Source of the DNA: a virus
Lineage: Duplodnaviria; Caudoviricetes
Direction: 5' to 3' (one strand)
IMG/VR virus record: IMGVR_UViG_3300037506_000199
Location: 1 to 50,488 of that record
Length of the DNA stretch: 50,488 bases
Below the pieces are notes generated by a model. It was given only the letters and a program-made list of their open reading frames with translations, was not told where the DNA came from and ran no database searches. Position numbers and translations under genes: made by a program. Positions 1,306 to 50,488 of this stretch are shown in pieces. The number at the start of each line of letters is the position of its first letter. Positions within the stretch are counted from its first letter, which is position 1.

Positions 1306-1340
1306 GTTGCAAGCCTGTGCAATGGCTTCGTAATTTCGAC
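1306..1340 (+). repeat. Solitary CRISPR-repeat-like unit (copy D)
   Basis: GTTGCAAGCCTGTGCAATGGCTTCGTAATTTCGAC, 25/35 identical to array repeat; followed by ATAAGGAG and ATG at 1356. Confidence 0.75.
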
Positions 1341-1355
1341 ATAAGGAGAATTGCC

Positions 1356-1640
1356 ATGCCACCGATTGATTGGATGAAGTTTTTGCAGATTGTTATCGCG
1401 TCATTGAATGAGTGTTTGAATCCCGACGTGAGTTTCACGGAGGCGCAGGAGTACGCGCGAAGTCGGCCGTGGTTGACACGCCGCCGGATCGCAGCGGCCT
1501 TGCGAGATCACCGGATCGGGGCTTGGTCTCCGGAGAACTGCAACATGTGTTACCATGTGTTGACCAAGGCGCCCGAGAACGTGCTGGAGTCGCTGGCCTG
1601 CGGCGAGCTGCAATCACCGCCGGCGGAGTACGCGAGCTGA
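1356..1640 (+). CDS. Hypothetical protein (94 aa)
   Basis: AAGGAG RBS before ATG 1356 (MPPIDWMKF...). Confidence 0.7.
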   Translation: MPPIDWMKFLQIVIASLNECLNPDVSFTEAQEYARSRPWLTRRRIAAALRDHRIGAWSPENCNMCYHVLTKAPENVLESLACGELQSPPAEYAS

Positions 1641-1689
1641 AGTGCGATTGGAACCGACCGACTGACAATCACGACAAGGGGCAGTTAAA

Positions 1690-2460
1690 ATGGGCAGGCA
1701 CGGTAAATGGGGATGGCTGTGGGCCGTATCGATTGTAACGGCCCTAGCGGCTTCGCTGGCGAGCGCGGAGACGAAGCGGGTAGAAAGCCGCGATAGGCTC
1801 GTCGAGCTCGTTACGGAAGCCGCTGGGGCCGCTGACGTTGATTGGGAGGCCAGAGACCCGGTTGGGGCCTCCATGAAGACCTTCCGATGTACCGATGGGA
1901 CTACCCGCGCGGTAATCTGGGTAAGCGGCCCCGGCGCGGTGGTCGTCTCGGATGTCATTGACTGGGACGCCCGGCAGCGGATTAAAACCCAGTGGATCGT
2001 GACCATTGTTGGTTCTGATCCACCCCCTGCTCCGGGACCGTCCCCACCTCCTGCTCCGGGACCGTCTCCACCAGCACCAGATGCTGCTCCTTTTCCAGCT
2101 CCAGGACTGACTGTCGTGATCGTGGGCGAGTTTTCCGATGACAATGCGGTGCGGTCTATGCCGGCATCCCAGTTGGCAATCTTCAACAGTGCGCAAGTGC
2201 TGCGGTGGTGCGTCGAGCATTGTTTTCGTCATGGCAATAGTGATATTGCGTTTCGCAGATGGGATGATGATTACACCGATACCGATCTGCATGTCGTGCC
2301 ACCCTTTCTGAAGCAGGCTTATGTGACCACTAAGCAGGCACGAAAAAATGAGCCGGAACCATGGATTGGTATCAGTGACGGCAAGACGGGATACATAGGA
2401 CCATTGCCCAAAGATATTGCTGGTACGTTGGAGTTATTGGGCCAGTACGGAGGCAAATGA
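1690..2460 (+). CDS. Secreted/membrane-anchored protein with Pro-rich linker; near-matched by CRISPR spacers 1 and 16
   Basis: N-terminal signal peptide (WLWAVSIVTALAASLASA), DPPPAPGPSPPPAPGPSPP linker between two domains. Confidence 0.8.
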   Translation: MGRHGKWGWLWAVSIVTALAASLASAETKRVESRDRLVELVTEAAGAADVDWEARDPVGASMKTFRCTDGTTRAVIWVSGPGAVVVSDVIDWDARQRIKTQWIVTIVGSDPPPAPGPSPPPAPGPSPPAPDAAPFPAPGLTVVIVGEFSDDNAVRSMPASQLAIFNSAQVLRWCVEHCFRHGNSDIAFRRWDDDYTDTDLHVVPPFLKQAYVTTKQARKNEPEPWIGISDGKTGYIGPLPKDIAGTLELLGQYGGK

Positions 2461-3230
2461 TGGCACGAATGATTAGCATCAATGACGTGAATTATCGCCA
2501 GTTCGTCAACCCGGTGATCAATGGCGAAACACGTGTCTGCAAAAGTTTCGGTATGTGGTTGCCGCGTTCACGCGGTGCCCCAAAGCCTTTTGAAGCCATG
2601 GGCATCCCAGTGTTGCCCGAATCGTCGTGGGACGAGCGCATTGAGGAACTCGAGCGCAACGAAGCCACGCTGCGACATTTATGCGATGGCATGGAATTGG
2701 AATGCCTGGACCAAAAGTCCACGTCATATTGCTGGGTGTTTGGTCCTACCATGTGTTGCATGATTACCCGTTTGCGGGAAACTGGCCGCGAATACCGTTT
2801 GTCGCCAGCTTCCGCTGGCGCGCCGATCAAAAATTTTCAGAATCGTGGTGGGTGGGGAGAGGAAGCGCTGAATTATTTCGTAAAGTATGGGTTGAACGAG
2901 CAGGCGGATTGGCCTGAGACAGCTATAGATCGCCGATATTACACGGATGAAAATCGGCGTAAGGCGCTGGCACATCGCGTGCTGGAGTATTATCGCATTG
3001 ACACCTGGTTACAAATGGGAAGCGTGATTTTGCATGGCATTCCGGTTTCCCCTGGGTATAACTGGTGGGCTCACCAAGTAACTGGAGTACATGTGCGCCG
3101 TGGCGACCATGCCCTGTTGATTCGCAATTCTTGGGGCAGGGACTGGTCGGATGATGGCTATGGCTGGTTGGAAGGCAACAAACGTTATCCCGATGGTTGC
3201 GTTGCCATTACTACCATGGCGGCGCTGTGA
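2457..3230 (+). CDS. Papain-like (C1 family) cysteine peptidase
   Basis: QKSTSYCW (oxyanion Gln, catalytic Cys), AHQV (His), IRNSWGRDWSDDGYGW (Asn motif). Confidence 0.85.
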   Translation: MMARMISINDVNYRQFVNPVINGETRVCKSFGMWLPRSRGAPKPFEAMGIPVLPESSWDERIEELERNEATLRHLCDGMELECLDQKSTSYCWVFGPTMCCMITRLRETGREYRLSPASAGAPIKNFQNRGGWGEEALNYFVKYGLNEQADWPETAIDRRYYTDENRRKALAHRVLEYYRIDTWLQMGSVILHGIPVSPGYNWWAHQVTGVHVRRGDHALLIRNSWGRDWSDDGYGWLEGNKRYPDGCVAITTMAAL

Positions 3231-3259
3231 TGCCTGTGCAATGACGTTGTAATTGCCAT
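3225..3259 (+). repeat. Solitary CRISPR-repeat-like unit (copy E)
   Basis: CTGTGATGCCTGTGCAATGACGTTGTAATTGCCAT, 21/35 to array repeat; spans peptidase stop and next start codon. Confidence 0.6.
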
Positions 3260-3446
3260 GAACGAAGAACGTCTAAATTCGTTGTTGGATTCGCAAATTG
3301 ACTTGGGCATGATGTTGCATGTCACAAAAGTGCAGCTAGACAAACTGATCGAGAAAGTTCGCGAACTGTCCGAACAAGTGGCCAGCATGCGGGTGGAATG
3401 CCCGTCATGCCCGTCATGCGCGGCAAAGAAAAAGGAGAAAATATGA
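3258..3446 (+). CDS. Small coiled-coil protein with C-terminal CPSCPSC
   Basis: ORF in operon context with heptad pattern. Confidence 0.6.
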   Translation: MNEERLNSLLDSQIDLGMMLHVTKVQLDKLIEKVRELSEQVASMRVECPSCPSCAAKKKEKI

Positions 3447-3721
3447 TGAAACATGTCTTCTGGTTACTGTTGTTATTGACCAGCACAACAAGTGTCATGG
3501 CGCAAACTTGCGGTTCGTCTTGAACGCCGTCGCAGCGCGCGAGTGTCGCGCCCAGAAGGCTGTTGCCGCGTTGGCAAAGCCGTCGCGCGGTTATGAGGAG
3601 TTCGCAGGTGATGCCGCAACGGATGACGCAGACCGTCCGTTTGGCGCCTGCAGTGCCGCAAGTGCAAAACCAAGTGACGAAGAACAAGCAGTTCGCTGTA
3701 TGGTTTGATGATTTGCACTAA
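3443..3721 (+). CDS. Putative secreted peptide with in-frame TGA at 3521 (candidate selenoprotein or nonsense allele)
   Basis: AAGGAG RBS; MMKHVFWLLLLLTSTTSVMA-QTCGSS-TGA, then the frame stays open to TAA 3719-3721; hairpin directly after the TGA. Confidence 0.5.
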
Positions 3722-3775
3722 TGTTGGTCGATTCGCCGTGGGGCTTCGTATGCGCAGAACCAAAGGAGAAACAAA

Positions 3776-4069
3776 ATGAAAATGGTGATTCGCGGTTTGT
3801 GTGTGTGCTGTGTATTGGTGGCCATGTCGCAATTGAAAAGCCATGGCGCAGGTATTGAGTTGTGTCGTTCCGACAGCGGTCACGATTGCATAGCCATTGG
3901 CTGTGGTACCGCGTGTGCAACAACACCGCATGATCACACTGCGTGCGCGATGACGTCGCATAATTGCACCGCGCGCAAGATGTCTCGGCACGAGCACGGC
4001 AAGGCAAAGTGGTGGAGTCGCGGGCCAGTGCGCAGAGGATTGCGCGCGTTACTGCGTGGCGGTTGCTGA
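3776..4069 (+). CDS. Small Cys-rich, probably secreted protein
   Basis: AAGGAG RBS, hydrophobic N-terminus, many Cys. Confidence 0.65.
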   Translation: MKMVIRGLCVCCVLVAMSQLKSHGAGIELCRSDSGHDCIAIGCGTACATTPHDHTACAMTSHNCTARKMSRHEHGKAKWWSRGPVRRGLRALLRGGC

Positions 4070-4321
4070 TTGTGTCTCGCGGTTCTCGCGGTTCTCGCGG
4101 TTCTCGCAATTCTGCTCGAACCGGGATACTGTGACGTGCAATCCCAGGGCCGTGGCGATCCGTTCCAGGCGCGACAGTGTCGGGGACTCTTGCCCCGCCA
4201 GCATGCGAGATAGATGTGCGCGACTACACCCAGTCGCCCGCGCCAGCCCCGCGATGCTACGCCCTTGGCGGCGCGCCTCCGCGCGCAGGATGTCGATGAT
4301 CGCGTCAGGGGTATCTGTCAT
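4049..4321 (-). CDS. XRE/Cro-C1 family HTH transcriptional regulator
   Basis: GRSIAGLARATGCSRAHLSRMLAGQESPTLSRLERIATALG; AGGAG RBS before ATG 4321. Confidence 0.88.
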   Translation of the reverse strand: MTDTPDAIIDILRAEARRQGRSIAGLARATGCSRAHLSRMLAGQESPTLSRLERIATALGLHVTVSRFEQNCENRENRENRETQSATATQ

Positions 4322-4353
4322 CTCCTGTCCTCCCCTTGTCGGTAGTCTCCGGT

Positions 4354-4383
4354 AGCGTACCACATCGGGGTCGACGGCGTCAA
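4354..4383 (-). promoter_or_regulatory. sigma70-type promoter of HTH gene
   Basis: TTGACG-18-TACGCT with a CCCGATGT half-site in the spacer. Confidence 0.55.
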
Positions 4384-4411
4384 GAGCGTGACCCAGCACC
4401 GATACAGGCTA

Positions 4412-4465
4412 TTGACACGCTGTCCCCGATCGGTGATACTGCGGTCATGTCCGGCCTACATCGGG
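4412..4465 (+). promoter_or_regulatory. sigma70-type promoter with operator-like inverted repeat
   Basis: TTGACA-17-GATACT; CCCGATCG-N25-ACATCGGG straddling the -10 and predicted start site. Confidence 0.7.
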
Positions 4466-4500
4466 CCGGTGTACTCAGGCTACCTCACTGGAGAAATATC

Positions 4501-4959
4501 ATGAGCAAGATTAAAGACGTGTACTACAAAGAGTGGTGCTATCAGCTCGAGCGCGCCCAAGCAGACCCACAGCTCAGCGATGAGCCGCGCGTCTGCTGCT
4601 GGCTGATGCTGCCGACCTCCTCGAACGACCTGGTCGATCCGAGGTATCGGTTTGGCACGCGCTGCGAGCTAGCTGGTGCCCCCATCACTGCGGAATGGGG
4701 GGAGATGGCTGCGTGCCAACCATCGTGGGGCGTCTCGCATCGATGCATCGGACGCTGGTTCGATGTCGAGCTGGACGATGCGCCGAGTACGATGACCTAT
4801 GCCATCCTGGAGGCGCGCGCTACAGCATGGGCGCACGCTGAGTTCGATCGGCTCGATGGGTATGTGACGTGCCGACGACTGCGCCATGAACAAGCCAGTG
4901 TCGAGCCACCAGCGGAGGATGTGGAGGATCTGGAGGATGTGGTGCCTGCTAGAGTGTGA
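4501..4959 (+). CDS. Early hypothetical protein (paralog of 5899-6744 domains)
   Basis: GGAG RBS, ATG 4501; LPT...RYRFGTRCELAGAPITAEWG motif shared with 5899-6744; acidic tail. Confidence 0.75.
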   Translation: MSKIKDVYYKEWCYQLERAQADPQLSDEPRVCCWLMLPTSSNDLVDPRYRFGTRCELAGAPITAEWGEMAACQPSWGVSHRCIGRWFDVELDDAPSTMTYAILEARATAWAHAEFDRLDGYVTCRRLRHEQASVEPPAEDVEDLEDVVPARV

Positions 4960-4971
4960 GTGTGACAACAA

Positions 4972-5011
4972 CAAGGCCCCTCGTGGTGTTGCCACGAGGG
5001 GCCTTGGTTTT
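4972..5011. terminator. Intrinsic terminator between convergent early genes (possibly bidirectional)
   Basis: 15-bp perfect stem CAAGGCCCCTCGTGG/CCACGAGGGGCCTTG followed by GTTTT. Confidence 0.8.
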
Positions 5012-5025
5012 GCTAGCTGTTGCTC

Positions 5026-5496
5026 CTATGCCTCGTTCTCGTCCTCGGACATCTCACGCGCCAACCATCCCGGCTCATACGTCACGCGCGTCAGACCCTG
5101 CTCGCCCGTCTGTGGATGCTGTGCCCACGTATCCGTGGTCATGCGCATACCGCAGTGCCGGCAGATCTCGTGGATGATCACCCCACCTCCATGTCCCCAC
5201 ACGCCCGGATTCTCGCGCAGTCCGCCCAGTATCTCGTGCGGCGAATACCACGAGTGCTCGTGACCCGGCTCGCAGGGTGGCGCACTCGGATGCAGCGCCA
5301 CATCCACCACCGTGCCCGCATCGCGATCGCGGACCGGCAGCACCAGTGCCGAGACGTACAGCGTCTCCTGCTCGACATGTGGCGACCACCCCTCACGTAG
5401 CCATTGTGCGGCTCTCTTCTGAGCCGCCGCTACACTCCTGCTGCGTATTCGGATGTATTCCCCCGTGTCCTGGTCAATGATTTCGTAGGTTGTCAT
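5026..5496 (-). CDS. Early hypothetical protein (paralog of 5493-5912)
   Basis: MTTYEIIDQ...AQKRAAQWLREG...PPCEPGHEHSW...CRHCG. Confidence 0.75.
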   Translation of the reverse strand: MTTYEIIDQDTGEYIRIRSRSVAAAQKRAAQWLREGWSPHVEQETLYVSALVLPVRDRDAGTVVDVALHPSAPPCEPGHEHSWYSPHEILGGLRENPGVWGHGGGVIIHEICRHCGMRMTTDTWAQHPQTGEQGLTRVTYEPGWLAREMSEDENEA

Positions 5497-5912
5497 GCTC
5501 CAGTCTCCTCTGATGATAGGGTCGATAGCTCCGTCTCCATCAGCCATGCGCTGTCGTACAGCACACATTCCTGGGCGCCATCCATCACTGTCGTCTTGGT
5601 CTCACGACATGTGCGGCACACTGCGACGTCATAGCGATCGTCCTCACATGGTAGATGCTGCCAGTCATGCTCGCCGTCTGCTGTGCTGCAGCGCGGCTCG
5701 GTCGCCGGTAGCTCCAGCCTCACCGTCTCCGCCCTGCCAATCGGGTCGCCGTCTGCGCCCAGCGCCCACATCTGCCCTGTAACCCAGCGCGTGTACGGCG
5801 CCGGTGCATGACCCTCTCCTAGCCATGCACGCGCACGTCGCTGTGCTGACTCCATGTCGCGCGACCAGATCGTCGTGTGACCGTCTACTCGCTGTACTCT
5901 ATAGCGTGGCAT
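5493..5912 (-). CDS. Early hypothetical protein (paralog of 5026-5496)
   Basis: MPRYRVQRVDG...AQRRARAWLGEG...PRCSTADGEHDW...CRTC; GGAGG RBS. Confidence 0.75.
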   Translation of the reverse strand: MPRYRVQRVDGHTTIWSRDMESAQRRARAWLGEGHAPAPYTRWVTGQMWALGADGDPIGRAETVRLELPATEPRCSTADGEHDWQHLPCEDDRYDVAVCRTCRETKTTVMDGAQECVLYDSAWLMETELSTLSSEETGA

Positions 5913-6744
5913 TGTCCTGCCCTCCAGTGTGATCAGTCGCTCTCGCCGGCAGATCGGCTGCGATCAGCGCCATCTGGCGCCGACGTATCTGCTCGCGCAG
6001 CTTGGCCAGGTCGTCGCCAGCCCAGGCATGAGCAGATGCCTCCAGTGATGCATACGATGGACCGCGGAATTGCTTCTCGCGCCCCACAGCGCAACGGTCA
6101 GCGTCCTGCATAGTCCCCCAGTCACACACCAGCGGGTGGCCTGCCACGCAGCAGCGCCACCCATAGCGGTACTGTGGCGCGAGCAGCAGCGGCCTGTCGT
6201 CGGTCTCGCGGCTGCCCGGTAGCCAGATGCGCGCAGCGACGATGACGTCGTCGCTCACCTCCACGTCGCACTGCCCCAGGCGGATGACCTCGTAGTCGCC
6301 GAGTGGCGCGGTCTCTGCCTGGGCGCAGGCCTCTGCTGCGGCACGAGCGGCCAGCGCAGCGGATAGCCGGTCTAGCTCCGTGCGCGCCCATCGAGTACCT
6401 GCTGCCTCCATCTCGGCGTAGGTGGCGCCGTCGAAGCGCGCGTGTGCCGAGCGCATGTGATGTATTGCGCCGCACCAGCTGTCGTAGGGCACGTCTGCTA
6501 TGGAGCCCCAGCTGCACGAGAGTGGTTCACCTGCGATCTGGAGTCGATGGCCGAACCGCAGTCGTGCCGTCAGCCAATGCTTCTCAGGCTTGTTCGGCTC
6601 GTCCTCCCGATCGTCCTCCCGATCGGTCGGCAAAAATATACGCGCGAGCACATAGGGTGTGTCGCCTTCGTCCGGTGGAGGCTGATGGTGTTCGAGAGCG
6701 TAGTGCCCCGGACCATATGAGATGAGCTTGGGTGTGTTGTTCAT
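5899..6744 (-). CDS. Early hypothetical protein with two internal repeats
   Basis: AGGAG RBS, ATG 6744; RIFLPT...RLRFGHRLQIAGEPLSCSWG and RIWLPG...QYRYGWRCCVAGHPLVCDWG. Confidence 0.78.
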   Translation of the reverse strand: MNNTPKLISYGPGHYALEHHQPPPDEGDTPYVLARIFLPTDREDDREDEPNKPEKHWLTARLRFGHRLQIAGEPLSCSWGSIADVPYDSWCGAIHHMRSAHARFDGATYAEMEAAGTRWARTELDRLSAALAARAAAEACAQAETAPLGDYEVIRLGQCDVEVSDDVIVAARIWLPGSRETDDRPLLLAPQYRYGWRCCVAGHPLVCDWGTMQDADRCAVGREKQFRGPSYASLEASAHAWAGDDLAKLREQIRRRQMALIAADLPARATDHTGGQDNATL

Positions 6745-6773
6745 GTCATGTCTCCTAGTGCATAAGCTGCCTG

Positions 6774-6827
6774 CCCGATGTAGGCCGGCTATGTCCACAG
6801 TGTATCACATCGGGTGCAGCGCGTCAA
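6774..6827 (-). promoter_or_regulatory. sigma70-type promoter with operator-like inverted repeat
   Basis: TTGACG-17-TACACT; CCCGATGT-N25-ACATCGGG; shares CCGGCCTACATCGGGC with the promoter at 4412. Confidence 0.7.
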
Positions 6828-6965
6828 GTCCTACTACTGTGACCACCACCACAGCGCTATGACAGCACTGGCACCACACACTGACACCAGGAGACTGCTC
6901 ACCGTCCGGCTCCAGTCCCAGACTACGCTCTCGCCGCACCGGACACGGGCTTGGTTCAGCTGTGA

Positions 6966-7205
6966 GCTGTACAAATTCTGTACAGCAAACCCGCTGCTGT
7001 ACAAATTCTGTACAGGACATCGCTGTACCAGTGCTGTACCGTCCAGCGCCTGCGCCTGCGCCTGCGCCTGCGCTGCGCCTGCGCCGAAATATCCCTGCGA
7101 CTGCCCTGCGCCTGCGCCTGCATTGCCCTGCACTGCGCCTGCGCCTGCACAGTTCCTGCGCAGGACCTGCGCTGACCTGCACAGGACCTGCGCCGGACCG
7201 GCGCC
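6966..7205. repeat. Non-coding repeat cluster: two GCTGTACAAATTCTGTACAG dyads and a (GCGCCT)n-like microsatellite
   Basis: 20-bp copies at 6966-6985 and 6996-7015; GCGCCT/GCACCT-type hexamers ~7046-7200. Confidence 0.8.
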
Positions 7206-7300
7206 GAGGGGCCCCTGACACACGCTCGTTTGGGTTTCCGCTACACGGTCCAAGCGGTTCAGCTACTCATCTAAACCCTTTCGGCGCCGTCCCGTTTGGC

Positions 7301-7356
7301 GCCTGGACCAGATCAGGAACAGGTCAGGGCCTGGACCAGATCAGGAACAGGTCAGG
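7301..7356. repeat. 28-bp perfect tandem duplication
   Basis: GCCTGGACCAGATCAGGAACAGGTCAGG at 7301-7328 and 7329-7356. Confidence 0.9.
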
Positions 7357-7360
7357 TCAG

Positions 7361-7395
7361 GTCATAATCACCAAGCCATTATGCAGGCATTGACG
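7361..7395 (-). CRISPR. Solitary near-perfect CRISPR repeat (copy F)
   Basis: Minus strand CGTCAATGCCTGCATAATGGCTTGGTGATTATGAC, 32/35 to array repeat. Confidence 0.9.
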
Positions 7396-7755
7396 GGGCC
7401 AGGCGCAGCAGGTGAGCAGGGACGGCCCCCTTACCCCCAGCGGCTAGCTGGTCTAAAAGGGGGGGGCCATTCGGACGGCCGCCGAGCCATTTATATTGGA
7501 GCCGCTCGGCATCACCCTTGGCTCCCGGACGATGGCCGTTGATGGGACGGCCTTACCGTTTATGGGATTTATTTATGCTCGCACCACCATCGAGCGCCAC
7601 CACCGGTACTACCGGTTGGTTCTGGGCTTTGTGGGTTTTGCGTGGCTCTTGCTTCATGGGGGTTCTTGGCCCCTCGGCCAGCGGCCGCGCTACGATAGCT
7701 GTTGCCGAACAGGCGGCTATGACCCGGGATGGGCGACTGCCTTCCGGGCGTGTCG

Positions 7756-7834
7756 GTTGCGAATACGCAGCCATTGCACAGGCATTAAGTCGCAATTACG
7801 TCACAATTACGAAGCCATTGCACAGGCAAAGAGA
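7756..7834 (-). repeat. Two adjacent CRISPR-repeat-like units (copies B 7800-7834 and A 7756-7790) plus a partial copy
   Basis: Both contain GCCTGTGCAATGGCT on the minus strand; 25/35 and 21/35 to array repeat. Confidence 0.7.
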
Positions 7835-7854
7835 AGCTGTACAGCAGCTTAGGT

Positions 7855-7883
7855 AGTATATAGGACGGCTGGAGTGAGTGCAA
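7855..7883 (-). promoter_or_regulatory. sigma70-type promoter directly upstream of repeat-like copy B
   Basis: TTGCAC-17-TATACT. Confidence 0.6.
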
Positions 7884-7886
7884 GAA

Positions 7887-8093
7887 TTATTGCAGATCGA
7901 GATTATTTTTGAGCCGGTCGTTAAGTTCCATGACCATGGCGATATTGGAGATGGCGTTTCCGAGTTGGGCGAAGGCGTAGTCTTTTAGCAGTTCGTCATC
8001 ATCGAGGCGTGCCAGGAGCCGGCTAACGGTTTTGAGGATTTGTTTGGTATCGAGTGGCCCGTCATGGGGCTCGTGGTTTAGGTTTTTTGACAT
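7887..8093 (-). CDS. Hypothetical protein (68 aa) flanked by repeat-like units
   Basis: MSKNLNHEPHDG...; helical, low-GC ORF between copies C and B. Confidence 0.6.
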   Translation of the reverse strand: MSKNLNHEPHDGPLDTKQILKTVSRLLARLDDDELLKDYAFAQLGNAISNIAMVMELNDRLKNNLDLQ

Positions 8094-8108
8094 AACCGTA
8101 TTACCGTG

Positions 8109-8143
8109 GTCGCAATTACGCAGCCATTGCACAGGCAAAGAGG
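8109..8143 (-). repeat. Solitary CRISPR-repeat-like unit (copy C)
   Basis: Minus strand CCTCTTTGCCTGTGCAATGGCTGCGTAATTGCGAC, 23/35; ends 15 nt before ATG 8093. Confidence 0.7.
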
Positions 8144-8236
8144 CGCTGGAGGGTTGAAGAGTTCCCTCCAGCGCCCAACCCGATGCCCACTGGAGAAGGC
8201 ACGGTACAAAACGGGTTCATCACTCCCGTGGGAGAT

Positions 8237-8264
8237 AGTATACCATGCATGGAGTACAGGGCAA
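8237..8264 (-). promoter_or_regulatory. Putative promoter (extended -10) upstream of copy C
   Basis: TTGCCC-16-TATACT with TGG immediately before the -10. Confidence 0.45.
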
Positions 8265-14173: not shown

Positions 14174-14818
14174 ATGGCAAAACGCGAAATTATTGCTGGT
14201 GCCATAGATCAGACAATTGACGTGTTTATCCTGGATAGTAGTTCCACGATTGGCGCGGGCCTGTCTGGCTTGGTGTACAACGCATCCGGGTTGACATGTT
14301 ATTACCGCAAGGGCGCCACAGGCACGGCCACGCAACTGACGTTGGCCACGCAAACCGTGGGCGGCGCACACACAGATGGTGGCTTCGTGCAAATCGACGC
14401 CACCAACATGAAAGGCGTGTATCGGTTGGACCTTTCGGATACGATTGTTGCGACCGCAGGCATGGTCACCATCTATTTGCAAGGTGCCGCCAACATGGCA
14501 CCGTGCGTGTTGGAAGTAGATGTCGTGGCGGATCGGGATAATCGAGACGCACGCTTTCATCGCGCCAAGAACGCAATCGTGCTGGGCACCGTCACCAGCG
14601 GCGCCACCACGACATCGATTCCCACGAGTTCATTAGATCCAGCAGCATCCGCTACGGATCAATTCAAGGGGCGCATTCTGCTGTTTGACCGTAATACCAC
14701 GACGGCGAATTTGCGAGGGCAGGCCACTGATATCACGGCTTCGACGAGTGGCGGCGTGCTAACGGTCACGGCGCTGAGCCATGCGCCGGTTAGTGGCGAC
14801 ACCTTCACAATCGAATAG
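14174..14818 (+). CDS. Hypothetical virion protein
   Basis: Thr/Ala/Gly-rich beta protein among fibre genes. Confidence 0.65.
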   Translation: MAKREIIAGAIDQTIDVFILDSSSTIGAGLSGLVYNASGLTCYYRKGATGTATQLTLATQTVGGAHTDGGFVQIDATNMKGVYRLDLSDTIVATAGMVTIYLQGAANMAPCVLEVDVVADRDNRDARFHRAKNAIVLGTVTSGATTTSIPTSSLDPAASATDQFKGRILLFDRNTTTANLRGQATDITASTSGGVLTVTALSHAPVSGDTFTIE

Positions 14819-17800
14819 TGATGAGCATTACCCGTCCACATCATGCCCTTCCAGGCCAGCCGTACGGGTCTTTTGCTGGGCGTGGTAATGCTTATAACGC
14901 AACAGTGGCGGCAAATGGTCCGGGGGCCCAAGCCGCAATTGCTGCGACCAGTACGCCACCGGTGTTTACGGCGACGGTTGCCGCACAAACTCCGGGCGTA
15001 ACAGCAGCAGCAGCGGCGACGTACAGCCCGCCCGTGTTCACAGCAGTCGTGGGCGCTCAAGCACCGGGCGCGACAGCAGCGGCGACGGCAACATTCAGCC
15101 CGCCTGTGTTCTCGGCAGTCGTGGGCGCTCAAGCACCGGGCGCGACAGCAGCGGCGACGGCAACATTCAGCCCACCGGTATTCACGGCAACTGTTGGCGC
15201 TCAAGCACCGGGTGAAACAGCAGCAGCAGCGGCAACGTTCAGTCCGCCTGTGTTCACAGCAGTCGTGGGCGCTCAAGCACCGGGTGAAACAGCAGCGGCA
15301 ACGGCAACGTTCAGCCCACCGGTATTCACGGCAACTGTTGCCGCTCAAGCACCTGGCGTGACAGCCTCAGCAACGGCGACATTCACTCCAGCTGCTTTCA
15401 CGGCAACTGTTGCCGCGCAAGCACCAGGTGAAACAGCAGCAGCGACGGCAACATTCAGCCCGCCTGTGTTCACAGCAGTCGTGGGCGCTCAAGCACCGGG
15501 CGTGACAGCAGCGGCGACGGCAACATTCAGCCCACCGGTATTCACAGCAGTCGTAGCTGCTCAAGCGCCGGGTGAAACAGCAGCGGCAGCGGCAACATTC
15601 AGCCCACCGGTATTCACGGCAACTGTTGCCGCTCAAGCACCGGGTGTGACAGCAGCAGCAGCGGCAACGTTCAGTCCGCCTGTGTTCACAGCTGTCGTGG
15701 GCGCTCAAGCACCAGGCGTGACAGTTTCGGCGACCGCGACGTTCAGCCCACCCGTGTTTACGGCGGCTGTTGCCGCTCAAGCACCAGGTGAAACAGCAGC
15801 AGCTACGGCGACGTTCAGTATGCTATCTGTCGCCAATGTGGTGGCCGTTGCTCCAGGAGTTCAAGCGGCCATTATGGCAACGGTGGATAATCCACCAGTG
15901 CCAACAGGCACGGGCATGTTCCAGACAACGGCATTTTATCAGCGCGGAAACGCCGCTTTGAGTTTGGGACCATTTGCGTCCCCACCTGCTCCGGCGGTCG
16001 TGGCGCCACTTACAGGGGAAGCCATGACACGTGATCCGAATTTGTCTCGGTGGCGGGATATAGTGCTTGATCCGTGCAATCGCACGGCTCAGAACCGTAA
16101 TACCGCCGCGATTCGTGACGCGCTGGAAGCGATTGTGGATAACTTGCCGGAGGAACAACAACCAACGGAAACGGGCGGTGATGCGCTGATTTTCTTCCAG
16201 GTTAATGAAGATGCCGTTGGGGAAGCATTCACAGCCGTGACTGAAATGATCTATAACGGCACGACGGGTGAATGGGAACCAACTGGAGCCGCCTATACCG
16301 CTTATGATTGGACGCCATCGCAAGCTTGGAGAACTAACTTCCGTGGGGGATTTTTTGGTGTTGGTCGCATCAATACCAATGTGGCGGCGGATGCGCTCGA
16401 GGTGTTGGCCTTGGAAGGCTTGGCGCGTTTTATTGAGGTCACGCTTAATGAAAATATGGGCGCCACAACCAACAAGCAAGCGGAAGCTACCGTGCAAGTG
16501 TATTGGGGAGATGCCACGAATGGGCGCGATCCAGGCACCACGGTGATCATTCATGACGTTACGAACATGGCGCCGCAGCGGCTCCAGGACGAAAACGCTT
16601 TGGCGATATGGGATGATAAGCGAGGGGCGTATGTCATGATTGCGCCCTGGGATGGATTACAAGCGCCAGGACAGGCCGCAATCGTGAAGGTGCTCGGCGG
16701 CGATGCGAGCAAAGGTTGCAATGACAACGTTAAACCAGATCAGTTCTGCGTGCATACTGGAAAGGTGCAAAACATTTCACTGGCAGGAGAGTTCTGTACG
16801 GAAAAGTTTACCGACGGGGCGCCTGTGTGGATTCTGGATGCCAGAAGTTGTCACACGAATAACCGTTTGAATATGCACGAAAGATACGTGGCGGTGTCCA
16901 TGGGGCTGACATGGGACCCAGATCCCAATGGGCCGGATACCGACGAGCGATATTTGTACGTGGTTGTGGATTATGCACCGGCCTTGCGATGGTTCAAGAT
17001 TTTGAATGACGCGAGTACGTTGGCGTTTACCATTCCTGAAACCAACGAGCTGAAATGTCGTTCGCACGATTGCGGAGGACCACAACCGGACGACGCGCCA
17101 AGCACATGGGCCAAATGGGTCGATATCGATCCTTGCACGCGGCAAGAAACTACGCTGGACAACACACCTACCTTGATTTATTTCCCGATGCATCGCGCGC
17201 GATGCAAGGCGGTTGAAGAGCAAACCGAGGCGGAAAAATGCAAGAACGAAGACGCCAATCCCAAATGCCGACACGATAAATTTGTGTTGGCATTTTGGAA
17301 CCCCATCGCGGAACGCTGGGATGCTATGGCTGATGTGGGCGATTGCGCCCAGGACGAGGAAGTAGCGCTGATTATTGTTTGTGACGGGGAAGCCGATCCC
17401 GATTGTTGCGTGTTTGATGCCTTGAAAATATCGGTATATCCACGAGGTGATTCTTATTGTGATCCCGTCAAGGAACGCACTCCAGTCTGGGTCCGGTGCA
17501 CGAATGGACAATTGGCGTTAACAGATGGGTATTGCGAGCTGGGCGTGAAAATTTGCAATGCCTTTACTTGCAAAAATGAACGGCGACCCATGTACATGTT
17601 CCAATGTGGACAATGTGATGTATGTCGCTGTCCTGATTATGGGAGTCCAATTCGCTTCACGTTGCGCGTCGCCAACCCGGCTGGGCCGTGCGGATATTTG
17701 GATGGTATCTCGGGAGAGGCTCTGTGCTTGGACTCTAACCCGTTTATCAACAATCCACCCCCAGGTGCGGGATGGTACGCGGTATTTGATGTCGAGGGCG

Positions 17801-18579
17801 TCGAACCGCGCCTCGTGTATTTGACATTCCCCAATGATACGGCACATTATCCCGATGGGGCCTGGTTGGAAATTGAATGTGCACCGGAAGGTGGACAAAT
17901 CCTAAGCGCATGGTGCGAAAACAATGGCGTGCTGGAAGCTTGTACCCATGGTATTCCGACGCCCAATGATTATGACACGGCAATCGTGGATTGCCGGCAC
18001 TTGGAGTTTTGGGACACGGCTAGCAGCACGTGGGTGCGACAATACCGGGCGCGTTCATACAAATATGGCATGTGGATTACTTGCGTACCGGGCGGACAGG
18101 GGATTTCCGGGTTGGTGATTTACTTGCTGAGCGCGGCCACGTCGTTCGTGTCGGTGAATCCCTTATGCGACGACAAGGGGTTCCGGGCAGTGATTAGCAG
18201 CGTCAATGCGGTATTGACCGATGGCGAGGGTGTGCCCATCCCCAACAATGCATGTTGTGATAATTTCATGCGGATTCCAATGCAAAAGGACATGGGATGC
18301 CGTAGCGAGGCACCAGATATTCCCATAATTGGCTTGAATAGTGGGCCGGGAGGGGGTACCAATACATGCAAGGAATGTGCCAATCAAGGTGCGGGCTTGC
18401 ATATGTTTGGCGGTTGTCCATGTAATTGGATTGTTTCCAGTGGTGGCAATTGCACGGTGGGTCAGGCAAATTGTGGAGCTTCGCCATTTCCCACAGAAAC
18501 AAGTCAAGGATGCTGCGAGCATGAAGAGAATCAGGTGTTTTTTGATTTCGAGTGGCCCTTCGTTGTGGAGCCTGCGTGA
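14818..18579 (+). CDS. Large fibre-like protein with 24-aa tandem repeats and Cys-rich C-terminal half
   Basis: 1253 aa; FTA(T/V)V(A/G)AQAPGxTAAATATFSPPV repeats; dense Cys after ~aa 630. Confidence 0.75.
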   Translation: MMSITRPHHALPGQPYGSFAGRGNAYNATVAANGPGAQAAIAATSTPPVFTATVAAQTPGVTAAAAATYSPPVFTAVVGAQAPGATAAATATFSPPVFSAVVGAQAPGATAAATATFSPPVFTATVGAQAPGETAAAAATFSPPVFTAVVGAQAPGETAAATATFSPPVFTATVAAQAPGVTASATATFTPAAFTATVAAQAPGETAAATATFSPPVFTAVVGAQAPGVTAAATATFSPPVFTAVVAAQAPGETAAAAATFSPPVFTATVAAQAPGVTAAAAATFSPPVFTAVVGAQAPGVTVSATATFSPPVFTAAVAAQAPGETAAATATFSMLSVANVVAVAPGVQAAIMATVDNPPVPTGTGMFQTTAFYQRGNAALSLGPFASPPAPAVVAPLTGEAMTRDPNLSRWRDIVLDPCNRTAQNRNTAAIRDALEAIVDNLPEEQQPTETGGDALIFFQVNEDAVGEAFTAVTEMIYNGTTGEWEPTGAAYTAYDWTPSQAWRTNFRGGFFGVGRINTNVAADALEVLALEGLARFIEVTLNENMGATTNKQAEATVQVYWGDATNGRDPGTTVIIHDVTNMAPQRLQDENALAIWDDKRGAYVMIAPWDGLQAPGQAAIVKVLGGDASKGCNDNVKPDQFCVHTGKVQNISLAGEFCTEKFTDGAPVWILDARSCHTNNRLNMHERYVAVSMGLTWDPDPNGPDTDERYLYVVVDYAPALRWFKILNDASTLAFTIPETNELKCRSHDCGGPQPDDAPSTWAKWVDIDPCTRQETTLDNTPTLIYFPMHRARCKAVEEQTEAEKCKNEDANPKCRHDKFVLAFWNPIAERWDAMADVGDCAQDEEVALIIVCDGEADPDCCVFDALKISVYPRGDSYCDPVKERTPVWVRCTNGQLALTDGYCELGVKICNAFTCKNERRPMYMFQCGQCDVCRCPDYGSPIRFTLRVANPAGPCGYLDGISGEALCLDSNPFINNPPPGAGWYAVFDVEGVEPRLVYLTFPNDTAHYPDGAWLEIECAPEGGQILSAWCENNGVLEACTHGIPTPNDYDTAIVDCRHLEFWDTASSTWVRQYRARSYKYGMWITCVPGGQGISGLVIYLLSAATSFVSVNPLCDDKGFRAVISSVNAVLTDGEGVPIPNNACCDNFMRIPMQKDMGCRSEAPDIPIIGLNSGPGGGTNTCKECANQGAGLHMFGGCPCNWIVSSGGNCTVGQANCGASPFPTETSQGCCEHEENQVFFDFEWPFVVEPA
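14890..15900 (+). repeat. 72-bp coding tandem repeat (12 conserved + 2 degenerate units)
   Basis: 72-nt period visible in DNA and protein. Confidence 0.9.
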
Positions 18580-18854: not shown

Positions 18855-19144
18855 TCGTGTTGGCCTTGGCCGTGGCCCGAGTGACACGGCTAATGATGTA
18901 TGAACATGGACCCAAGGCGATTCTGTGGCATATCAGGAATCGTATTGGGGCACATGCAGAAACAGTACCAGCCGGAAGCTGGGCGGAATTATGGAATTGT
19001 CGATGGTGTTTAAGTTTTTGGGTATCTATTGTAATCGTGTTGTGTTTCTGGTGGTCCAGAACAGTCACAATCACTGTGTGTCTAGTGCTGGCCATCAATG
19101 TCATGGCAGCGATCATTGTCAAGTGGACCGAAGATGCGATGTGA
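18851..19144 (+). CDS. Small membrane protein (DUF1360-like)
   Basis: LAVARVTRL...GP...R...ELWNCRWCLSFWV pattern plus TM segments. Confidence 0.65.
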   Translation: MIVLALAVARVTRLMMYEHGPKAILWHIRNRIGAHAETVPAGSWAELWNCRWCLSFWVSIVIVLCFWWSRTVTITVCLVLAINVMAAIIVKWTEDAM

Positions 19145-46819: not shown

Positions 46820-48619
46820 ATGAAAAATTGGTGTTATCGTGCTTATGAGCCGACCAAGAATTTAGAACGAGTGAACGAACAATTGAGACTAGCGCACATC
46901 TACAGAAACAAGCTATGTGAGCTGGAACTGCAAAGACGCGAGGAAGTGGAGGCTTGTTGGCGCGAATGCTGCCCGGAATACATGGTCGCCAAAGACATGA
47001 TGGCCATGAAACAAGCGAAACTGGACGAGCTGTTTGCTAGCATTCGCAAACGAGCGCAAGCCAACAGAACGAAGGCAGCACCAATTGGCGAAGAACGCGC
47101 GTTGATACAGAAACTCAAAGTGGAAATGAAAACCAGTCGCCAGGAAGTCAAGGCGCTACTGGCTACTGCGAAACAACGACCCGATGTCGTACAACGCCTG
47201 ATGGAGCTGAGCGAAGCGCATAAACGTCGCTACCGAGCTGCTAGAGCTAGCAGCGGATTATTTTGGGGCACCTATTTGTTTGTCGAGGATAGCTGCAAGG
47301 ATTTTGGTCGCGGCGCCCCACCACAGTACCGTCGGTGGAATGGTACTGGTACCATCGCATGCCAGGTCCAGTATGGTTTACCAGTGGACGAATTGCTGCA
47401 AGGTCAGGATACTCGCGTGCGATTACACATATCGGCAGCATGTGAAGAAGCGTTGGCGACGCAAGGTAAGGCACATGGCAAGCGTGCTCGGAGCTACGTG
47501 GAGATGCGCATCGGTTCCGAAGGTAGGGCCCCCATATTCGCGACAATACCGATCCAGATGCATCGACCATTACCAGCAGGCGCCAAAATAAAATGGTGCT
47601 ATCTGGAAAAACGGCGGGTGGCGTCACAAGAACAATGGACCGTGCGATTAAGTATTGACGAGCCTCCGCGCATTCGCGCCACATGCGAAGAGCTGTGTTG
47701 TGTACACGTGGGATGGCGAGTGATGGAGGATGGGAGCCTACGTGTCGCCACGTGGCGAGGATCAGATGGCCAACAAGGACAAGTGATGATAGCACCAGAA
47801 CGTATCGCGCGACTGTGCTATTGTGATGAACTACGGAGCGTGCGCGATCACAATACCAACATGCACCGAACTATGCTTATCGAATGGCTCAAGTCGCATG
47901 AGCATCCGGAATGGCTGGGCGAACGCACTGCGACAATCGGACAGTGGCGCAGCCCGGCCAGAATGGCGGCGCTGGTATTGGCGTGGCGCGAACAAAGGTT
48001 TGCTAGCGACGAACAAATATATGTGCCATTGGAAGCATGGCGAAAACAAGACAAACATCTGTGGACGTGGCAAGAACATCAGCGGCGCAATTGTGTGTGC
48101 TGGCGTAATAACGAGTATCGCAACGTCGCCAAGACACTAGCAGCTCGCTATGGGCATATATGCATTATGGATTGCGAATGGGCTGAAATGCGCAAAAAGC
48201 CAGCAATTGGCGAAGAGGAAAAACAAACAACGGCTATGCGGTTCAATAGTTCGTTGGCGGCCGTAGCAACCCTGGAGCGATACTTGCGTGAGGCGTTCGG
48301 TACGGATTGCGAGTTGCACATAGACACGGCTGGCGTGACGCGACAATGCCATGCGTGCGGCGCTAACAATGAAGATATAGGAGTGACACGTATGGTCACA
48401 TGCTGTGGTTGCGGGCGCGAAATAGATATCGATCTCAACGCACTGGACAATATGGTTGCGAGAGCCAAGGTGGTGCACGCTACTCAGCCGCCACTCGCGA
48501 GCATTATGACACAACGAGTTAAAGCACATGGTAACAGCCGACCGCTATCGAAACGACAGGCTGGATTTCGCGCCGCTCGCAAAAGGCCGCGCAACCAGAA
48601 TCCGGACAACAGCTTATGA
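46820..48619 (+). CDS. cas12m: Type V-M CRISPR effector Cas12m-like (C2c4/V-U1), RuvC predicted inactive
   Basis: 599 aa adjacent to array; QLRLAH, GLFWGTY, RWNGTGTIACQVQ, VHVGWR (H296 at RuvC-I), QWRSPARMAAL, ICIMD (D451), CHAC/CCGC Zn finger, DIDLNA (D538); these parallel MmCas12m motifs as recalled from memory. Confidence 0.88.
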   Translation: MKNWCYRAYEPTKNLERVNEQLRLAHIYRNKLCELELQRREEVEACWRECCPEYMVAKDMMAMKQAKLDELFASIRKRAQANRTKAAPIGEERALIQKLKVEMKTSRQEVKALLATAKQRPDVVQRLMELSEAHKRRYRAARASSGLFWGTYLFVEDSCKDFGRGAPPQYRRWNGTGTIACQVQYGLPVDELLQGQDTRVRLHISAACEEALATQGKAHGKRARSYVEMRIGSEGRAPIFATIPIQMHRPLPAGAKIKWCYLEKRRVASQEQWTVRLSIDEPPRIRATCEELCCVHVGWRVMEDGSLRVATWRGSDGQQGQVMIAPERIARLCYCDELRSVRDHNTNMHRTMLIEWLKSHEHPEWLGERTATIGQWRSPARMAALVLAWREQRFASDEQIYVPLEAWRKQDKHLWTWQEHQRRNCVCWRNNEYRNVAKTLAARYGHICIMDCEWAEMRKKPAIGEEEKQTTAMRFNSSLAAVATLERYLREAFGTDCELHIDTAGVTRQCHACGANNEDIGVTRMVTCCGCGREIDIDLNALDNMVARAKVVHATQPPLASIMTQRVKAHGNSRPLSKRQAGFRAARKRPRNQNPDNSL

Positions 48620-48626
48620 GTGCCGC

Positions 48627-49842
48627 GTTCCATGCCTGCATAATGGCTTTGTGATTATGACCCACTCGCTTCGTCTCCGCGCTTGCCAGCGAAGCCGCTA
48701 GTTCCATGCCTGCATAATGGCTTTGTGATTATGACCGTCGCATCGGCGAAGACTGCCGACTTGCGATTGCCGGTTCCATGCCTGCATAATGGCTTTGTGA
48801 TTATGACGGCCTGAAGCCCGGCCGATGGCGCTGCCTGCGCTGCGACGTTCAATGCCTGCATAATGGCTTTGTGATTATGACGTGTGGACGGCGATCGTCG
48901 GGCCCTCGGGAGACAAAGTTCCATGCCTGCATAATGGCTTTGTGATTATGACCGGCTGGCACGCAGCCAGCACGCATCACGTCATAACGTTCAATGCCTG
49001 CATAATGGCTTTGTGATTATGACAACGCGATCTCGTAGCGCGCGATCTGCGCGTCCGTTCAATGCCTGCATAATGGCTTTGTGATTATGACTGGGGACTG
49101 TCCGCCCCGCGCGGACCGATCCCGTGCGTGCGTTCAATGCCTGCATAATGGCTTTGTGATTATGACTCGCTGGCGCTGGAAGCGTCGGCAAGACAACGCT
49201 CGTCGTTCAATGCCTGCATAATGGCTTTGTGATTATGACGCGGAGCACGCGACCCGCACGTTCAATGCCTGCATAATGGCTTTGTGATTATGACAGCCAG
49301 CACGGGATGTCCGATCCACGTCCGTTCAATGCCTGCATAATGGCTTTGTGATTATGACAGGTCGTCGTCCGTCGCCATACCAGCTCTGGGCCGCCGTTCA
49401 ATGCCTGCATAATGGCTTTGTGATTATGACGACTGCCCACGACGCAGAACGTTTAATGCCTGCATAATGGCTTTGTGATTATGACAACGTGAGAGCGTAC
49501 TGGACAACTCGCGTAGGCGCCCGTTCAATGCCTGCATAATGGCTTTGTAATTATGACCCCGCGCATACAGTCTATGTGGTTGCCAGTCGCTATACGTTCA
49601 ATGCCTGCATAATGGCTTTGTAATTATGACCCTGGAAGACATCCTCGAACTGCCAACTCTGCTTGACATGCAATGCCTGCATAATGGCTTTGTGATTATG
49701 ACATCTCCTGGTCCGGGACCGTCTCCACCAGCACCAGATGCGTGCAATGCCTGCATAATGGCTTTGTGATTATGACGACCTGCTGCGACTGTTGCTGTTA
49801 TGAGCGCGTCCAATGCTCGCGTCATGGTGTTGTGATTATGAC
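48627..49842 (+). CRISPR. CRISPR array, 18 repeats / 17 spacers (20-40 nt)
   Basis: Repeat GTTC(A/C)ATGCCTGCATAATGGCTTTGTGATTATGAC (35 nt; often preceded by C); degenerate terminal repeat 49808-49842 and TTT PAM at the spacer-1 match support plus-strand orientation. Confidence 0.98.
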
Positions 49843-49915: not shown

Positions 49916-50488
49916 ATGCCACGAATCAGAACGATCAAGCCAGACTTTTGCTGTCGAGAAGAGATTTGTGCCTGCTCCAAGGGTGCCAGGTTGCTTTACA
50001 TTCTGATGTGGATGCATTGCGATGATTATGGTAACCATCCAGCCAAATTCAATGCATTGCGATCGGCATGTTTTCCGCGCGATTCCGACGGGGTCGAACA
50101 AATAGGCAATTGGATTGCCGAGTTGGTAACACAGGGACTATTAGTAGAATACACAGGTCATGATGGCGAGCAATATTGGCATGTTGTCAACTGGGAGATG
50201 CTGCAAAAAATAGACCGCCCGAGCAAGCAACGTTACCCAAGCAATTCTGGCGGTAGTTCCAATGGGGGAGTGGCTCGAGGAGTAGTTGACGAGTACTCGA
50301 CGAGCCACCCCCCCATAGATACTACGCCTCAACAAAAAACACTCGACGAGTACTCGTCGAGCCACCCCCCCATAGGTACTGACACTCGACGAGTACACTC
50401 GTCGAGCCACCCCCCCATAGGTACTGACACTCGACGAGTACACTCGTCGAGCCACCCCCCCATAGGTACTGACACTCGACGAGTACAC
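49916..50488 (+). CDS. Phage replication initiator, N-terminal part (runs off window)
   Basis: MPRIRTIKPDF...ARLLYILMWMHCDDYGNHPA...FPRD...W...QKIDRPS, typical initiator N-terminus; open to window end (not in ORF track). Confidence 0.8.
   Translation, partial: MPRIRTIKPDFCCREEICACSKGARLLYILMWMHCDDYGNHPAKFNALRSACFPRDSDGVEQIGNWIAELVTQGLLVEYTGHDGEQYWHVVNWEMLQKIDRPSKQRYPSNSGGSSNGGVARGVVDEYSTSHPPIDTTPQQKTLDEYSSSHPPIGTDTRRVHSSSHPPIGTDTRRVHSSSHPPIGTDTRRVH
50354..50488 (+). repeat. 45-bp tandem repeat (3 copies, plus degenerate copy upstream), iteron-like
   Basis: TCGTCGAGCCACCCCCCCATAGGTACTGACACTCGACGAGTACAC with ACTCGACGAGT dyad. Confidence 0.9.

Follow-up and report, generated by a model that had tools for sequence, protein, structure and literature searches.

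Lone copies of a Cas12m-type repeat dispersed outside the CRISPR array of a phage: possible inserted sources of guides

The closest described relatives of the system considered here are the type V-M loci of CRISPR (short palindromic repeats, clustered and regularly interspaced). According to the published account, the characterised Cas12m members bind DNA without cleaving it and process their own pre-crRNA, the precursor of CRISPR RNA (PMC11013384); a phage-borne member, MvCas12m of a myxophage, has already been published (10.64898/2026.09.14.751636). Type V-M loci are described as having no Cas1 or Cas2 (PMC10691335). In the loci reported for MmCas12m2 (PMC10442227), GoCas12m and MsCas12m (PMC11013384) and MvCas12m (10.64898/2026.09.14.751636), cas12m is followed by an array and no adaptation genes were found, and the locus analysed here has the same layout. 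In these descriptions the repeats stand only in the array, whereas the phage genome analysed here (the window: one phage record, IMGVR_UViG_3300037506_000199, analysed over its whole 50,488 bases) has seven further copies outside it, six of them of a different variant. We describe these copies and weigh what they might be.

Among the genes of the window are those for a terminase, for the tail and for a replication initiator. The initiator frame is open across both ends of the record, which is therefore probably circular; the gene spans 49916-50488 and 1-616 and contains 45-nt and 27-nt tandem repeats. The type V-M locus consists of two elements:

46820-48619, plus strand: cas12m, 599 amino acids, E value 1e-53 to 23vw_A
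48627-49842, plus strand: CRISPR array, 18 repeats of 35 nt (the last degenerate) and 17 spacers of 20-40 nt

The array begins 7 nt past the cas12m stop codon. Similarity of the encoded protein extends to 8pm4_A (2.5e-39) and to Cas12m2 (1.9e-32) over about 540 amino acids. It has His296 replacing the first RuvC Asp, Met450/Asp451, Asp538 and a His248-Arg249 motif. Because of His296 at the first RuvC position, the phage Cas12m is likely nuclease-dead, like the characterised members; by analogy with these (PMC11013384), it would bind DNA without cleavage and process pre-crRNA. No cas1 or cas2 was found among the 41 larger open reading frames (ORFs) scanned against Pfam and PHROGs. Judged by its sequence, the locus is of type V-M: it has a Cas12m gene, an adjacent array and no adaptation family among the scanned ORFs.

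Two array spacers match the phage itself, in the same ORF (1690-2460):

1745-1783, minus strand: match of spacer 1, TTT upstream, three mismatches, all at third codon positions
2046-2084, plus strand: match of spacer 16, CCC upstream, two mismatches

The T/C-rich protospacer-adjacent motif (PAM) at these self matches is like that described for type V-M. Spacer 1 matches a synonymous variant of the phage's own gene, so the array would target close relatives, and we read both spacers as taken from close relatives of this phage. The array had no match in annotated phages and plasmids. A pattern search of viral contigs for a close relative carrying the exact variant repeat returned 0 matches, and Cas12m and the phage's papain-like peptidase, as single-protein queries, returned 0 loci.

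The preliminary description of this record had reported five 35-nt units sharing an exact 12-mer. All five lie where it had placed them; the 12-mer occurs exactly five times (1313+, 3232+, 7772-, 7816- and 8125-), and the gapless match to the array repeat, reported as 21-25 of 35, was found to be 25 (copy D), 21 (E), 21 (A), 25 (B) and 23 (C). The set was incomplete: the same ungapped scan added two minus-strand copies, F (24/35) and G (32/35).

1306-1340, plus strand: copy D, full-length variant repeat, one helix pair broken
3225-3259, plus strand: copy E, the most decayed; a stem pair, the outer helix pair and the last C altered
3826-3860, minus strand: copy F, antisense within ORF 3776-4069, with a broken pair in the stem and another in the helix
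7361-7395, minus strand: copy G, near-perfect array-type repeat, all nine pairs kept
7756-7790, minus strand: copy A, following B as the second of the two; four of the six helix pairs kept in register
7800-7834, minus strand: copy B, all nine pairs kept, two as G:U
8109-8143, minus strand: copy C, all nine pairs kept, one as G:U

Markov shuffling of bases 1-48600 (300 shuffles) gave on average 0.06 sites matching at 23/35 or better and none at 25/35 or better. A covariance model was trained on 16 array repeats only, one of them the window's own array repeat. It recovered six of the seven copies at E values of 0.003 or better (G 5e-7, D 0.0008, F 0.0009, B 0.0009, C 0.002, A 0.003), copy E scoring 0.24. 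Six of the seven represent a repeat variant that differs from the array and has 60-71% identity to it. Counted across the circular junction, the seven are 1.9-8.8 kb away from the array end. In the contigs of two sequencing runs, X1 (possibly where this DNA comes from) and X2 (near-identical, but in pieces only), every copy covered was free of variation and the variant repeat formed no array; the sequence collections scanned likewise gave no array of the exact variant. Thirty matches to the 16-nt repeat core were set aside as chance, since they reached at most 27/35 and included no arrays.

Copies D, G and C are solitary and intergenic, A and B form a pair, E lies over gene ends and F inside an ORF. 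The spacings reported for D, E and C proved correct. Copy D is preceded by the stop codon of ORF 616-1272 and then by a short hairpin plus T run; it ends 15 nt before the ATG at 1356 and 2 nt before the ribosome-binding site (RBS) of that ORF. Copy E overlaps the stop of the peptidase gene (3228-3230) and the next start at 3258, and copy C ends 15 nt before the ATG at 8093. A strong hairpin precedes C (folding z -3.7 for 8080-8200); elsewhere single-strand folding z values were near zero, by a method unable to model the pseudoknot. Upstream of B and C, 11 of 14 bases are in common. The features adjoining these copies are as follows:

1356-1640, plus strand: ORF of 94 codons directly behind D, no family found
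7789-7799, minus strand: immediately behind B, a near-copy of the final 11 nt of the repeat, so that B and A are only 9 nt apart
7887-8093, minus strand: ORF of 68 codons between C and B, without Shine-Dalgarno sequence, skipped by the simple gene caller
8237-8264, minus strand: promoter-like site, 9/12 with extended -10, from which a transcript would run through C, B, A and G

The same duplication of the 3' end of the repeat was seen in records L037 and L235. Searches for homologues of ORFs 7887-8093 and 3776-4069 found none, Atlas matches for ORFs 1356-1640 and 7887-8093 were uninformative, and ORF 7887-8093 may not be a gene. Promoter-like sites of the grade of 8237-8264 number six against 3.8 expected, hence the evidence from this one is weak. 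The proposal that all units face local transcription is supported for D and E only; for A, B and C it depends on this site and on the doubtful 68-codon ORF. Copy G is followed by 28-nt tandem repeats, and its upstream flank resembles spacer 17 (local score 11, reached by 4/400 random windows). Just downstream of G, positions 6960-7360 are non-coding and of low complexity, with 20-nt, 28-nt and GC-rich repeats, possibly an origin or terminal region.

The RNA scaffold was compared with the solved crRNA of Cas12m2, in which, as described, a short stem and a flipped base go with a G:A pair and a 6-bp helix, and the His-Arg motif reads the terminal C (PMC10442227). The array repeat conforms to this geometry (3-bp stem, G:A, 6-bp helix, 3' AC), and so do all seven copies. 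The G:A positions are kept in all seven copies and the terminal C in six, E having T. The stem pairing given in the preliminary description was confirmed: B and C keep six helix pairs (two and one of them G:U, respectively), D and E five, and A four in register, or six by eye if a one-base bulge is allowed; the GCC/GGC pairing, said to persist in four of the five units, is broken only in E. Pairing is complete, at all nine positions, in B, C and G, and one to two pairs are broken in D, E, F and A. Over the 16 arrays, 143 of 144 cells were paired, as compared with 34-41% in slid controls, and all nine pairs change on both sides. When the 12 helix positions were not constrained, five or six pairs were present in 55 of 64 distinct variants from 18 records (the window plus 17 fetched records, arrays included), against 1/8 of the reversed controls. 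Within-genome covariation was significant in records G007, G011 and G015 (p <= 0.0006) and weak in the window (p 0.04). Separate descriptor counts and a separate covariation test of dispersed copies were partly circular, some rows having been found through pairing. The assignment of the copies as Cas12m-type RNA scaffolds is thus supported, as far as sequence can tell.

The same covariation bears on whether the motif is a DNA operator for the phage's helix-turn-helix (HTH) protein, as the invariant 12-mer in five copies, a mild 5' conservation bias and the HTH gene at 4049-4321 might suggest. Paired positions covary across arrays and within genomes, which makes a double-stranded operator unlikely, and the motif belongs to a CRISPR repeat family. 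A different 8-mer, present four times at promoters around the HTH gene, is a better candidate. We therefore regard the operator reading as highly improbable, in agreement with the preliminary description, which had counted binding as double-stranded DNA against its own proposal. The 8-mer occurs four times in 4340-4470 and 6765-6830 and six times in the genome against 1.85 expected, and is a candidate operator of the HTH protein. The promoter-like sites 4412-4440(+) and 6799-6827(-) share spacer and leader motifs.

The stem differences between the copies and the array had been presented as compensatory changes selected site by site. The family of six copies departs from the array at seven core positions, including two double helix changes, and its loop and arms resemble the repeats of other arrays, e.g. 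that of L034, a record with a cas12m of its own. A single 5' arm is common to five copies, so the supposed compensatory changes are, on this alignment, one inherited variant rather than independent compensations. Within the family there are 16 distinct changes, 10 of them at paired positions (10.3 expected by chance), and seven of these 10 break a pair while three keep it. The fold is thus not visibly maintained at each site.

These results speak against a Cas12m-controlled regulon, in which Cas12m would bind or cut handles in phage mRNAs, masking RBSs or splitting operons with the Cas12m level. Pairing shows no excess conservation within the family, and D and E, the copies in front of genes, both have broken pairs. 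Moreover, G, A and B have no called ORF of at least 50 codons directly downstream, F is antisense in an ORF, and no guide has a TTN-flanked seed match longer than those of shuffled guides. In its favour are the position of D just before an RBS and similar layouts in G009 (twice), G007 and L059. The last repeat of multi-unit arrays abuts the next RBS too, however, and so would anything inserted into a tight junction. In the preliminary description the copies were proposed to be RNA-level Cas12m sites of a possible regulon; the scaffold type stands, by its covariation and its sense placement after stop codons, but the regulon is not supported. We consider it rather unlikely, even allowing that Cas12m is reported to process its own pre-crRNA.

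The neutral appearance of the family changes with respect to pairing would fit relics instead, that is, decaying scars of recombination with CRISPR arrays, possibly PAM-erasing; in a variant of this idea the copies are crossover points for gene cassettes, such as D-to-E and C-to-B. The upstream flank common to B and C, and the location between D and E of the gene matched by two own spacers, point the same way, and many stand-alone repeats are thought spurious in one account (10.1101/2023.03.03.530964). What stands against relics came from other phages.

A Cas12m profile search found 20 viral loci, from which 16 distinct records were fetched whole; two duplicates, G003 (a duplicate of G009) and the distant G017 were left out. 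Clear copies away from cas12m were present in five of the 16 (G007, G009, G011, G013 and G015), two more had one weak match each, and control sequence gave 0 matches above score 19 in 1.18 Mb. G011 alone holds 80 copies in 17 clusters of 1 to 14. Thirty of the 34 remote clusters, the window's six included, are intergenic (random sites 23%, with a simple gene caller), and 17 of the 34 lie at most 130 nt after a same-strand stop codon (random sites 4%). In other phages lone copies and arrays of up to 14 units form a continuum at the same kind of site. In G011 three copies beside cas12m differ in stem from the dispersed majority (L127-L134). At L084 11880-13340 (G007) an array of more than 20 repeats, nearly all different, keeps its structure; it has very short spacers and an embedded 90-codon gene. 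G009 has two sense-strand repeats, at 41251 and 42940 (L137), in frame within one 860-codon ORF. Arrays of the same repeat family occur in L074 and L076, two short contigs of a genome titled Leptospirillia bacterium, with no cas12m on these contigs.

A second, independent pattern scan was blind to cas12m. It gave 82 loci, of which 18 from already analysed records were dropped and 64 left; these contained 31 lone copies with five or more helix pairs, 30 of them distinct. Fourteen of the 30 follow a same-strand stop, against one of 30 in mirrored positions (p 2e-4), and 123 of 125 matches keep at least five of the six helix pairs, four pairs being free in the pattern. Both this strong sense bias and the retained pairing run counter to neutral relics, as does the within-genome covariation of G007, G011 and G015, though this may have been inherited from several donor arrays. 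The sense bias would also suit a regulon, as would the ATG-started ORF found within 40 nt of 10 of the 30 copies, against three mirrored (p 0.057). One relaxed-pattern match, L031/G019, was probably chance: it is the sole one of its kind, lies antisense in a small-terminase domain, and its record has no Cas12m match.

Nine of the 23 records with independent lone copies match the Cas12m profile, five at full length. Among the six near-complete records with lone copies, three have no Cas12m match. Persistence of the motif in relatives without cas12m had been named beforehand as an outcome that would speak against Cas12m sites; the three records come near it, but they are not relatives of this phage. 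Such carriers weigh against a regulon. Two of the three (L205 and L234) have a flanking duplication, as relics might, and on balance we hold relics to be unlikely.

The carriers lacking Cas12m would fit decoys, i.e. transcribed copies that soak up the Cas12m of competing phages, plasmids or the host, the phage's own enzyme being titrated too. Copies C, B, A and G would lie in one 900-nt minus-strand unit behind the promoter-like site, and the 9 nt enclosed by the B-A pair, B's would-be guide, copy the repeat's own end. In the phage none of the guides has a convincing target, ORF 1690 is where relatives are targeted, and Racrs, RNA anti-CRISPRs made of single viral repeats, are reported to be effective against type V-A (PMC10651486). 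On the other hand, the solitary repeats described there lack cas association, whereas here the cognate effector is encoded by the phage; D, E and F lie within operons; and an array of the exact variant is missing from the two runs and the collections scanned. Decoys are, in our judgement, somewhat unlikely.

The would-be guides, i.e. the bases following each copy, were compared with the phage. The longest TTN-flanked seeds were 4-7 nt, within the range of shuffled guides, and none lay upstream of cas12m. Single-repeat guides and decoys, both put forward in the preliminary description, remain live, but no TTN-flanked seed beyond the shuffled range supports the former in the phage. The guide of F has a self match at 19079-19098 (-), with TTG upstream and a 7-nt seed; it extends over 14/17 bases, and 1/60 shuffled guides reach 14. 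The F flank and 19079-19098 both encode similar hydrophobic peptides. The copy flanks had no match in the loci compared outside the window.

Traces of how lone copies arose were found mainly in other records. In L037 lone repeats lie between duplicated tRNA fragments, the TTN-flanked duplication reaching 18/20. In L059 a lone repeat lies between two copies of a 17-nt stretch behind TTT (16/17), and in G009 a repeat follows a duplicated portal end behind TTC. A TTN together with a duplicated guide start was present in 6 of 33 lone or paired units, compared with 23 of 1686 null pairs. With any upstream triplet, a duplication score of at least 8 was reached by 3/31 in the independent set against 8/928. 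At L037 3536-3910 (also L057 and L060) three lone scaffolds stand in a phage tRNA cluster, each with a tRNA fragment after it (Lys 3' end, Arg-like and Ile 5' halves) and similar tRNA sequence before it.

In the window, copy F has a candidate trace of insertion:

3861-3897, minus strand: spacer-sized block 5' of F, 37 nt, behind CCA; it begins with the same 5 nt that follow F on the 3' side

Together, block and F measure 72 nt, equal to 24 codons and to one array period; hydrophobic stretches of the N-terminus of ORF 3776 lie on either side, and we infer a spacer-repeat unit inserted in frame. A 5-nt match at the distance of a spacer occurs at 2.4% of random sites (1.5% in frame), and F is the best of seven copies. 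The sole protein relative of the G009 ORF lacks about 11 residues at the first in-frame repeat and none at the second, in a weak alignment (E 0.011). Two further parsings were not used: an insertion of exactly 72 nt at the D site leaves a stop in frame but has no seed duplication, and alternative parsings of E as a deletion product were post hoc.

The scaffold, the Cas12m gene, the placement bias, the recurrence and the flanking duplications in a minority of lone copies are observations. To account for them we tentatively prefer, at somewhat less than an even chance, the explanation that the seven copies are inserted lone repeat units on phage transcripts, serving as sources of guides outside the array. 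The units would enter when a spacer-repeat unit recombines with a site that matches the seed and is flanked by a PAM; likely they derive both from this array and from foreign arrays, inserted at gene junctions or in frame. A 2019 study by Varble, as cited in 10.1101/2020.10.09.333658, reportedly described recombination between spacers and phage DNA, in which repeat-spacer units were moved much as we propose here. Local duplication (B from C, A from B) and decay might have followed. Units would persist at junctions or in frame and be transcribed along with adjacent genes; Cas12m would bind and cut the transcribed units into guide-like RNAs, each with the next 17-20 bases of phage DNA as guide. 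Such guides could be directed at related phages in which the same locus lacks the repeat; the self site would be spared, its PAM position being taken by the repeat end. Alternatively, the units may seed, or be remnants of, distributed mini-arrays transcribed from borrowed mRNA promoters. If the host mRNA were cut or its RBS masked, this would be a side effect rather than a coordinated regulon.

Several observations weigh against inserted guide sources. Beyond the self match of F, the window's guides have no target in the phage. None of the seven window copies has the TTN and duplication signature, and in the independent set the TTN form was found in only 1/31. The duplication was noticed by eye in L037 and G009 before the formal test, and of the six positives two may be one duplicated event and one a repeat-end artefact. 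No repeat-free allele was found for any copy, those of G009 and G013 included. Four of the seven copies have broken pairs and may not load. The strand agrees with that of the nearest confident gene in only 22 of the 34 remote clusters (p 0.12). Insertion alone leaves the sense bias unexplained unless spacers are strand-biased, and it likewise leaves unexplained a mild deficit of changes in the first 12 core positions (3/16, p 0.04).

A more general proposal, which we put forward as doubtful, is that Cas12m phages need no Cas1-Cas2 to gain guides: a repeat inserted right behind a PAM-flanked site of the phage's own genome would turn the flank into the guide. If so, the inserted allele would be immune and the repeat-free allele of co-infecting relatives silenced; the repeat would spread as a minimal homing element and seed distributed arrays on mRNAs. 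Such a system would be a living intermediate between the flank-derived guides of TnpB and CRISPR arrays, with mRNA processing free for phage gene control. Lone repeats at junctions, some of them between duplicated PAM-flanked targets, offer a test case for guide creation by repeat movement. Should these mRNAs indeed be cut or masked by Cas12m, they would provide a natural example in which a CRISPR effector processes the messages of its carrier.

Two further features of the window may be mentioned. Positions 4049-7250 form a GC-rich module of short ORFans (63% vs 54%), and the array spacers average 66% GC. A coding tandem repeat of 72 nt, in about 14 units, occupies 14827-15846 within ORF 14818-18579.

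No published account of dispersed repeats in Cas12m phages was found among the titles and abstract openings searched; the supplementary tables of papers on Cas12m and on solitary repeat units (SRUs) could hold cases. Among the known systems, viral SRUs, or Racrs (PMC10651486), are like the window copies in being single viral repeats, mostly intergenic and in some cases behind a promoter-like site. As described, however, SRUs have no cas association and match a host system, whereas the window encodes its cognate Cas12m and array; the Racr types tested were I-C, I-E, I-F and V-A, the main text being without V-M (PMC10651486). The identity cut-off given for SRUFinder is 90%, whereas six window copies have 60-71%; with six of seven copies below it, array-centred annotation misses part of phage Cas12m systems. 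CreR, CreA and Cracr RNAs (10.1101/2023.03.03.530964, 10.1101/2024.10.29.618823) also consist of a degenerate single repeat and a spacer-like flank, and CracrVA1, with one repeat, is reported to work with Cas12a (same sources). CreR and Cracr are described as having a PAM-flanked partial target in a cas or toxin promoter, but none was found in the window's phage genome. The copies thus resemble SRUs or crRNA-like RNAs, yet they are neither Racrs as described, because the cognate effector is encoded in the same genome, nor CreR or Cracr RNAs, because no promoter target was found. With viral mini-arrays (PMC11656645) the window shares spacers that match close relatives and short repeat clusters off the main locus; the mini-arrays described there borrow the host Cas and hold one or two acquired spacers, whereas in the window it is native DNA that follows the copies and the phage itself encodes the effector. 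Stand-alone omega RNAs of TnpB and IscB (PMC10691335) resemble the copies, as read here, in having a scaffold off the effector gene, with a guide that would come from the flank and with action in trans, but the scaffold in the window is a 35-nt CRISPR repeat, and no transposase was present among the ORFs scanned. With the crRNA of type V-M, as described, the window has in common the stem and 6-bp helix, the flipped base, the G:A pair, the terminal C and an altered RuvC site.

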